A DNA stretch of 64,000 bases from Escherichia coli (lineage in GTDB: Bacteria > Pseudomonadota > Gammaproteobacteria > Enterobacterales > Enterobacteriaceae), in NCBI RefSeq assembly GCF_030384885.1, contig NZ_CP128613.1. The stretch is one strand, 5' to 3'. This document shows positions 62,301-63,756 of the stretch, in pieces. How positions within the stretch are numbered: position 1 is the stretch's first letter; every line of letters starts with the position of its first letter. Position numbers: made by a program.

Positions 62301-63756
62301 TCATCGCCTTCATCTGCATAACGCTGGGGAATGCCATGATAAGAGAGCAGCAGCAGATCCGGTTCGCCATGTTTAGCAAAAGAAGCACGTACGCTGTTCG
62401 CCAGTGCATTAATGTAATCGTGGTTATCGGCGTAATCACGAATAAACGATATCCCCGGAATGCTACGTTTGCGCGCCAGAATGCGTGCCAGCTCATCCCA
62501 TACCGCACCGACCGTTGAACAGGAGTATTGCGGATAAAGCGGCAGCACCACGATATGATCTACATGCTCTGCCAGGAGTTCATCTACGGCGCTTTCCAGT
62601 GATGGCGAGCCATAACTCATTCCCAGCGCCACGGGCATATCCGGTAAGCGTTGTGCCAGCGCCTGCTGTTGCTGACGGCTGTAAACCATCAGCGGCGAGC
62701 CACCTTCCATCCAGACAGAGGCATACAACTTCGCCACACGCGGCGAGCGCAGCGGCAAAATCACGCCGCGCAGCAACGGCCACCACAACAGCCGTGAGGT
62801 ATCAACCACGCGTCTGTCGCTTAAAAATTGTTTCAGGTAGCGTTTTACCGCTTCAGGAGTGGGGGCATCGGGTGTACCCAGGTTTGCCAGCAGAATACCG
62901 GTTTTAGTTTGACGCATTACCGCCTCTTATCGATTCAACTTGTTGATAATTGTAGCGGAAAAGTGAAGAAGAAGAACTAATTGCTGTGAGAGGCTAAATC
63001 AGAAAATATCATAAGGCGCTGTATCTTTAATGAGAGATTTTTGCCAGCGCCAGATTTTCCAGAAGGTGCTATTGCGTCACGGGGGTACCATTGACGTTAA
63101 GTGTATATGGCCAGATTAAATTTGATGCCCTACCACACATTGGTGTAGGCGTTCTGAAAGTGGTCCTGATCGTATACTCTCCGGCTTTCTGGGGAGTGCC
63201 TGAAAATTTTACCCACGCCTCTTCGGTCAGAGAATCTGTATTCTTTTTCAGAAACTCTGCATTTTCTTCCGTGATGGGGAAAAGTTCACCCTCTTTGTTT
63301 TTTGCCCACAATGACATTTGTATGCCTTCAGGCAAAGTTTCAGGCTTTTCGGGACGAATGTCCGGGGCTTCATACCAACTTATGGTCGTTTTTACGACGG
63401 TTTCGTAATACTGGCCCACCTGAGCATCAGGAAGCTCTTGTTTTTCATTAACTTTATCATTACTTGTAACATGAGAAAGAGCTACACCGACGTAACACAT
63501 AGGCATTTCACACCCTGTCAGCAATGACGCAAGCAATAAAATACCTGTTGGTAATAAACAGCGATAACGCATATTTACGTCCTTGTTAAAGGCCGGAAGC
63601 GTATCCAGCCTCCAGTTGCTGGCAAAGTGCGCTTTGTTCATGCCGGATGCGGCGCGAACGCCTTATCCGGCCTACAAACTGACAAGTTTGTAGGCCTGTT
63701 CCCCTCCCCCTCTCCCCGAAGGAGCGAAGGGACTGTCCGTGCGCGCTTTCGAATTA

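Follow-up and report, generated by a model that had tools for sequence, protein, structure and literature searches.

The junction between hemH and adk in Escherichia coli poses a question of direction: a lipoprotein gene that lies there in some strains and not in K-12 could have been inserted into the strains that carry it, or retained by them and lost elsewhere. We addressed this question in a stretch of 64,000 nucleotides from the E. coli contig NZ_CP128613.1 (the window), whose sequence matches that of E. coli 2013C-4282 (NZ_CP027579.1) at 100% identity. Okuno et al. include strain 2013C-4282 in their list of complete genome sequences from Escherichia cryptic clade I (PMC10100065), and this clade is a reported emerging source of STEC/ETEC-type pathogens (PMC10100065). 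The listing agrees with the alignable part of the window being only 94–97% identical to K-12.

The spacer between hemH (61955–62917) and the end of adk (63754) occupies 62918–63753, which are exactly the coordinates given in a first-pass annotation of this DNA. That annotation had given the adk–hemH gap of K-12 as short and regarded the gene as extra relative to K-12; both points hold, as the spacer is 235 bp in K-12 W3110 versus 836 bp in the window, and the W3110 spacer holds no such gene. The features of the junction are, from left to right:

61955–62917, minus strand: hemH (ferrochelatase), the left flank; a 320-aa ORF, annotated as hemH in the identical record NZ_CP027579.1
62918–63006, minus strand: region upstream of hemH (presumed promoter/leader), common to all spacer alleles; 86/89 identical to K-12
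63007–63564, minus strand: 558-bp segment absent from the K-12 allele, from a global alignment of spacers and MAFFT alignments
63069–63572, minus strand: lipoprotein gene, 167 aa, from the ORF, lipobox, homologues, dN/dS and β-sandwich model
63580–63584, minus strand: Shine-Dalgarno AAGGA, read from the sequence, 7 nt before the ATG at 63572
63587–63614, minus strand: hairpin followed by UUUAAC (presumed adk terminator), with an 11-bp stem in the fold and in alignments
63622–63681, unstranded: 60-bp segment that contains the REP unit and is missing from the alleles of K-12 and E. whittamii
63642–63675, unstranded: REP core of 34 nt, an inverted repeat with five copies in the window
63669–63696, unstranded: perfect 12-bp palindrome (GGCCTACAAACT/AGTTTGTAGGCC) overlapping the REP tail, from an inverted-repeat search and the fold
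63693–63753, unstranded: dispersed, GC-rich extragenic repeat immediately following the adk stop, aligning to K-12 at 39/42 and 18/19
63754–64000, minus strand: 3′ end of adk, the right flank, running off the window; from ORF reading and the annotation of NZ_CP027579.1

Start codon and signal peptide of the lipoprotein

The product of the 167-aa ORF begins MRYRCLLPTGILLLASLLTGC, with a signal peptide over residues 1–20, the lipobox LLTG↓C at Cys21 and a mature protein of 147 aa. Lipoprotein signal peptides follow the pattern [LVI][ASTVI][GAS]C (PROSITE PS51257), with the Cys at residues 15–35 and at least six uncharged residues before it. The window protein reads ILLLASLLTGC up to Cys21, the pattern recurs in all nine homologues (Cys21–22), and a Lys or Arg falls within the first seven residues here (R2, R4) and in 9 of the 10 family members overall. 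By all criteria testable in the sequence, then, the product is a predicted lipoprotein, and the 167-aa lipoprotein ORF with LLTGC that the first-pass annotation had read is borne out by the lipobox pattern, Cys21, the Shine-Dalgarno and the homologues. It is like bacterial Lpp-type lipoproteins (Lgt/LspA/Lnt/Lol) in its basic n-region, uncharged h-region and L-T-G-C lipobox, but has no sequence relation to the named E. coli lipoprotein families (no NCBIfam or Pfam match). The 20-residue signal peptide would take the protein through Sec, and Cys21 would be lipidated, with cleavage via the Lgt/LspA/Lnt pathway. Outer-membrane sorting of lipoproteins is linked to the +2 residue by the Lol rule; because residue +2 after the lipobox Cys is Glu and not Asp, the protein is predicted to be delivered to the outer membrane by Lol.

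The first ATG after the upstream stop opens a longer frame of 190 aa (63069–63641), whose start abuts the REP unit. Counted from this start, the lipobox Cys would be residue 44 and so beyond the 15–35 range, as against residue 21 from the 167-aa start. We rejected it on this ground and because it is not conserved in homologues, all of which keep the 167-aa start. In E. whittamii no more than 45 nt separate the adk stop codon from the conserved lipoprotein ATG downstream of it, so the 190-aa frame cannot exist there, and the Shine-Dalgarno is kept as AAGGA in the alignment. On identical DNA, RefSeq/PGAP gives 190 aa (WP_001353397.1) in two genomes and 167 aa (WP_198444728.1) in the third, 2017-02-2CC; in those two of the three genomes the annotation should be changed from 190 to 167 aa.

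A simple promoter scan identified no sigma-70-like promoter on the strand of the lipoprotein gene. The gene starts 15 nt after the terminator-like hairpin and is preceded by a leader of four hairpins, namely the GC-rich repeat, the 12-bp palindrome, the REP unit and the terminator-like hairpin itself (z = −4.7). We infer that its transcripts may start at a promoter that the scan did not recognise, or come from adk by read-through. Downstream of the gene, a candidate terminator was rejected, as it folds no better than shuffles (z = −1.1).

Protein family, selection and predicted fold

Two homologue searches, covering 5.8 billion and 1.8 billion proteins, returned a very small family with members in Escherichia, Salmonella enterica, unclassified Enterobacteriaceae and Pseudomonas. 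The E. whittamii orthologue has 93% amino-acid identity to the window protein, and its UniRef label is 'Lipoprotein'. A Salmonella enterica cluster (serovars Lexington, Portland, Dortmund, Kotte and Claibornei) stands at ~54% identity (51–55% by alignment), four homologues from an unclassified Enterobacteriaceae lineage at 36–38% and two from Pseudomonas at 28–30%. All members have the lipobox and exactly three cysteines in the mature chain, and share the motifs LPxA, LPxG, W..SGTPxxAG.Y and MCG. The gene has a dN/dS of 0.42 against E. whittamii and 0.30 against Salmonella, and the copies at loci L005 and L012, both of the unclassified Enterobacteriaceae lineage, give 0.32 against each other. 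Pfam searches yielded no family at E ≤ 1 for the window protein or, with the limit widened to E ≤ 10, for five homologues, NCBIfam and PHROGs likewise matched no family, and a literature search for its RefSeq accessions found nothing; a small lipoprotein family lacking a Pfam or NCBIfam model is thereby flagged. Given that the lipobox and motifs are kept, that dN/dS is 0.30–0.42 and that the AlphaFold model is confident, the ORF at 63069–63572 is, on sequence and model evidence, a real protein-coding gene and not a chance frame.

The AlphaFold run used a 9-sequence alignment and gave a mean pLDDT of 75.8. The model consists of an all-β domain, with pLDDT of ~81–96 over most of residues 40–167 and dips to 68, together with the signal peptide and a tether of ~18 residues at low confidence. 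Foldseek against the PDB returned generic Ig-like matches only, a PDB sequence-profile search with the lipoprotein returned noise only (E ≥ 0.02), and the single marginal sequence match outside the family was a Cadherin_4/Big_9 repeat protein (hhalign probability 36%). We predict from the model that the lipoprotein is a lipid-anchored, single Ig-like or cadherin-like β-sandwich spanning residues ~40–167, outside any Pfam family. Set beside the CDHL module of SraP (4m00/4m02/4m03), α-dystroglycan (4wiq) and Pfam Cadherin_4/Big_9, the modelled fold bears a weak resemblance to the SraP and dystroglycan modules. A large adhesin of the SraP type is a tandem array, whereas the window lipoprotein would be a single domain on a lipid anchor; it differs further in a family-specific Cys pair, in that no cadherin calcium-binding motifs were identified in it, and in having no reported Pfam score. 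The pair is formed by Cys26 and Cys146, the two cysteines that are invariant in addition to that of the lipobox, and this invariance suggests that they probably form a disulfide. The mature protein would most likely act as a membrane-anchored binding module.

Spacer alleles and the age of the gene at the junction

A distant blastn search with 63000–63640 against 5,426 complete E. coli genomes located the gene in three, 2013C-4282, 2017-02-2CC and RMDEC465; the other 5,423 are without it, in line with the first-pass expectation that K-12-like references would not carry the gene. Among draft assemblies, the exact window protein occurs on 252–357 contigs, and protein variants carry the labels Escherichia sp. 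TW10509, HH26CH and 79.0191, and E. whittamii. When each GTDB species was represented by a single genome (100,044 genomes), E. whittamii gave the only match.

Gene-less spacers fall mainly into two alleles. Among 59 evenly spaced E. coli genomes, 31 have a spacer of 235 bp (K-12, BL21 and others) and 27 one of 131 bp (O157:H7, Nissle and others). The 235-bp spacer of K-12 has the same flanks, hemH-proximal block, GC-rich repeat and hairpin as the window but is without the gene; the 131-bp spacer, found in B2, O157 and some clade I strains, has the flanks and hemH-proximal block of the window and is likewise without the gene. Since the clade I strain EC42405 carries the 131-bp allele (locus L011, 7985–8115), clade I is polymorphic for the lipoprotein gene. 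The 76 nt of the window spacer nearest hemH are identical to the EC42405 allele (76/76), and because 76–89 nt beside hemH are kept in all spacer alleles, the upstream region of hemH itself is unaffected; we presume that 62918–63006 is the hemH promoter/leader. In the 131-bp allele an unrelated hairpin-like sequence follows adk, and only the last 76 nt are common to the other alleles. The three alleles provide a simple marker for a sublineage of cryptic clade I.

Several lines of evidence bear on the order of events. First, the arrangement adk–gene–hemH recurs in E. whittamii (L007, 3001–3504), in Salmonella (L003, L004 and eight further assemblies, the junctions being located with an Adk allele specific to the gene-bearing serovars), at L005 and at the MAG locus L012, whose HemH shares 98% identity with that of Enterobacter sp. 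BIGb0383 and 89% with that of Klebsiella. Each syntenic locus has a terminator-like hairpin after adk, with the start of the lipoprotein gene ~15–20 nt later. The hairpin at 63587–63614 is homologous to the one directly after adk in E. whittamii, Salmonella and K-12 and is presumed to be the adk terminator; a simple terminator scan missed it because its T-run is weak. Second, the dS of the lipoprotein gene against Salmonella is 1.18; its neighbours span this value, with adk at 0.74, htpG at 0.78, gsk at 1.47 and hemH at 1.57, so the gene appears to be as old as they are. Third, the K-12 spacer aligns to the window on both sides of one 558-bp gap, at 39/42 and 18/19 over the GC-rich repeat and 86/89 over the last 89 nt. 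The missing segment runs from codon 3 of the ORF through its stop and a further 62 nt, and from the hairpin through the start-codon region K-12 matches the window at 41/57 positions, with CTG in place of the ATG. Finally, hallmarks of mobility were not found: the 836-bp spacer contains no transposase, integrase or recombinase gene, the lipoprotein ORF being its only conserved ORF; no terminal inverted repeats bracket the indel; there is no direct repeat, as a target-site duplication, at 63007 and 63564; and the sole distant direct-repeat pair (12 nt with one mismatch, at 63036/63763) does not enclose the indel.

The first-pass description of the gene as inserted is thus the one claim that fared badly, as synteny in other taxa, dS, the 558-bp scar in K-12 and the lack of a mobility signature together favour retention here and loss elsewhere. 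The gene was probably ancestral at adk|hemH and deleted in K-12-type E. coli, with insertion the wrong direction. We consider it likely that this is a genuine gene for an exported lipoprotein and an old, fast-evolving, dispensable resident of the Enterobacteriaceae adk|hemH spacer that few lineages keep. It would survive in E. whittamii, in a sublineage of clade I, in one unclassified Enterobacteriaceae lineage and in a small number of Salmonella serovars. The 235-bp spacer of the K-12 type would have arisen from a window-like allele by a 558-bp deletion, and B2, O157 and other clade I strains would have a second gene-less allele, the spacer of 131 bp. In every genus the distribution of the gene is patchy, so that retention requires many independent losses.

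The Pseudomonas sp. homologues (L006, 5001–5465; L014, 4001–4477) lie in a neighbourhood that differs from adk/hemH, between an acyl-CoA dehydrogenase/thiolase/AMP-ligase cluster and a YdjC-GtrA-GT2-PMT glycosylation cluster. A functional link of the lipoprotein to hemH was rejected on this ground, and the adk|hemH position looks historical rather than functional.

The repeats of the spacer have a history of their own. The REP unit that had been read between the two genes in the first pass stands, its core at 63642–63675 recurring at four other window sites with at most three mismatches (five copies in the window versus none by chance in 100 shuffles). The arms at 63642–63654 and 63659–63671 are 85% complementary, and the unit lies between adk and the 167-aa ORF, is extragenic and has stem-loop potential in the fold; the region 63588–63678 matches other chromosomal sites in E. 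coli genomes. The REP-derived Rfam model naRNA4 scores 35.5 bits (E = 2.6e-4), short of its gathering score of 59.5, with a match covering one REP arm pair of the 77-nt model. As in the REP/BIME elements of E. coli, the unit is a 34-nt imperfect palindrome, GCCGGATGCGGCG...CGCCTTATCCGGCCTAC, extragenic and variably present between alleles; it differs in being a lone unit next to which lies a perfect 12-bp palindrome, and is no part of the lipoprotein gene. The GC-rich repeat at 63693–63753, which we take to resemble 'box C', occurs at a median of two places per E. coli genome and up to seven. The E. whittamii allele is without REP and without the GC-rich repeat, and the K-12 allele has the latter; the state of E. 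whittamii indicates that both repeats were later additions to the spacer, the REP unit probably being a separate, later addition to the window allele.

Recent exchange, rival histories and other variable segments

Comparison within Escherichia tells of more recent events. Against E. whittamii, the lipoprotein gene has a dS of 0.076, compared with 0.15 for adk (P = 0.026), 0.18 for htpG (P = 0.005), 0.33 for hemH (P = 2e-7) and 0.57 for aes, and it is 100% identical in the three clade I strains, the flanks of which differ by 1–5% per 500 bp. This low divergence, taken with identical copies in diverged strains, suggests some recent short-patch exchange of the gene between Escherichia clades. The flanks themselves are of clade I type: hemH and adk of the window are closest to EC42405, with 0–2 differences per 200 bp in the adk flank, and are no nearer to E. 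whittamii than elsewhere. Wholesale import of the gene with its flanks was rejected from this comparison with E. whittamii, EC42405 and K-12.

Low GC relative to neighbours is typical of acquired genes. The lipoprotein gene has a GC content of 43.8% (GC3 ~40.5%), compared with 53.8% for hemH, 51.8% for aes and 51.6% for gsk, and so has the atypical base composition of a mobile element or genomic islet; the Salmonella copy has 43.6% GC. We weighed a recent horizontal acquisition, in which DNA of a donor resembling clade II (E. whittamii-like) replaced a gene-less spacer through homologous recombination, the crossovers falling in the conserved adk and hemH flanks. Such an event would fit the GC content of 43.8% among neighbours at 52–54%, the presence of the gene in merely three of 5,426 complete E. 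coli genomes, a dS to E. whittamii two to seven times below that of flanking genes, the identical gene in three strains with differing flanks, and the gene-less 131-bp allele of clade I EC42405 on near-identical flanks. It is nevertheless unlikely in our judgement, because transposase, integrase and target duplication are all absent, the adjoining hemH and adk are of clade I type and not closer to E. whittamii, and the window and K-12 alleles have in common the GC-rich repeat and spacer sequence, both of which E. whittamii is without. K-12 also carries the scar of the former gene, which is as old as its neighbours by the Escherichia–Salmonella comparison; re-import of a short patch, if it took place, would not make the gene new to the site.

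More doubtful still is a long-lived presence/absence polymorphism, maintained through inter-clade short-patch recombination by niche-dependent benefit and cost and involving a new lipoprotein family, although the shallow dS to E. whittamii, the identical clade I copies and the three alleles on similar flanks are all consistent with it. If it were true, a surface-exposed Ig-like lipoprotein would be useful in some niches (for adhesion in the non-human or environmental hosts typical of cryptic clades) and costly elsewhere as a phage or immune target, and the family would be a new, uncharacterised one with a disulfide-pinned, cadherin-like domain.

That the ORF is a non-functional relic or chance frame in a variable spacer, with no protein expressed, is very improbable: the missing recognisable promoter, the position right after a terminator-like hairpin, the lack of any Pfam, NCBIfam or PHROG family, the loss in nearly all E. 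coli without obvious consequence and a rather relaxed dN/dS of 0.42 against the closest relative would agree with it, but the frame is intact in hundreds of assemblies (with the exact protein on those 252–357 contigs), frame, lipobox and cysteines are kept down to 28% identity, Pseudomonas included, pN is 0.28 versus a pS of 0.59 against Salmonella, and the gene has a strong Shine-Dalgarno and a confident predicted fold.

Under the preferred reading of an old gene retained in few lineages, the locus exemplifies ordinary variation of the accessory genome, and existing annotation already lists the product as a hypothetical protein. Its value lies mostly in annotation and population genetics; no long-standing question is answered, and a specialist would be unsurprised. 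The direction of the apparent insertion is corrected, in that K-12 probably has a deletion, and an old fixed location combined with patchy retention of the gene is of modest interest.

Other parts of the window vary as well. Between ybaL and gsk, two adjacent hypothetical ORFs of 150 aa and 98 aa (58598–59348, minus strand) carry annotations in 2013C-4282 and 2017-02-2CC, whereas RMDEC465, EC42405 and K-12 lack them; in a Pfam search of the pair no family reached the cut-off. A 1.3-kb segment between ybaK and ushA (52237–53568) is absent from K-12 and from the other two gene-bearing strains, and contains ORFs of 266 aa (52260–53060, plus strand; DUF6896, E = 4e-14) and 125 aa (53057–53434, plus strand). 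In the 500-bp bin at 61000–61500 the aes gene is strongly diverged, with 87% identity to K-12 and 83% to E. whittamii, and against E. whittamii it has a dN/dS of 0.12 and, at 0.57, the highest dS of the neighbourhood. The largest segment, about 30 kb at ~14400–45400, does not align to the K-12 segment, and its counterpart in the two related strains bears the annotation of a giant BapA-related adhesin SiiEA and a TolC-family outer-membrane protein.
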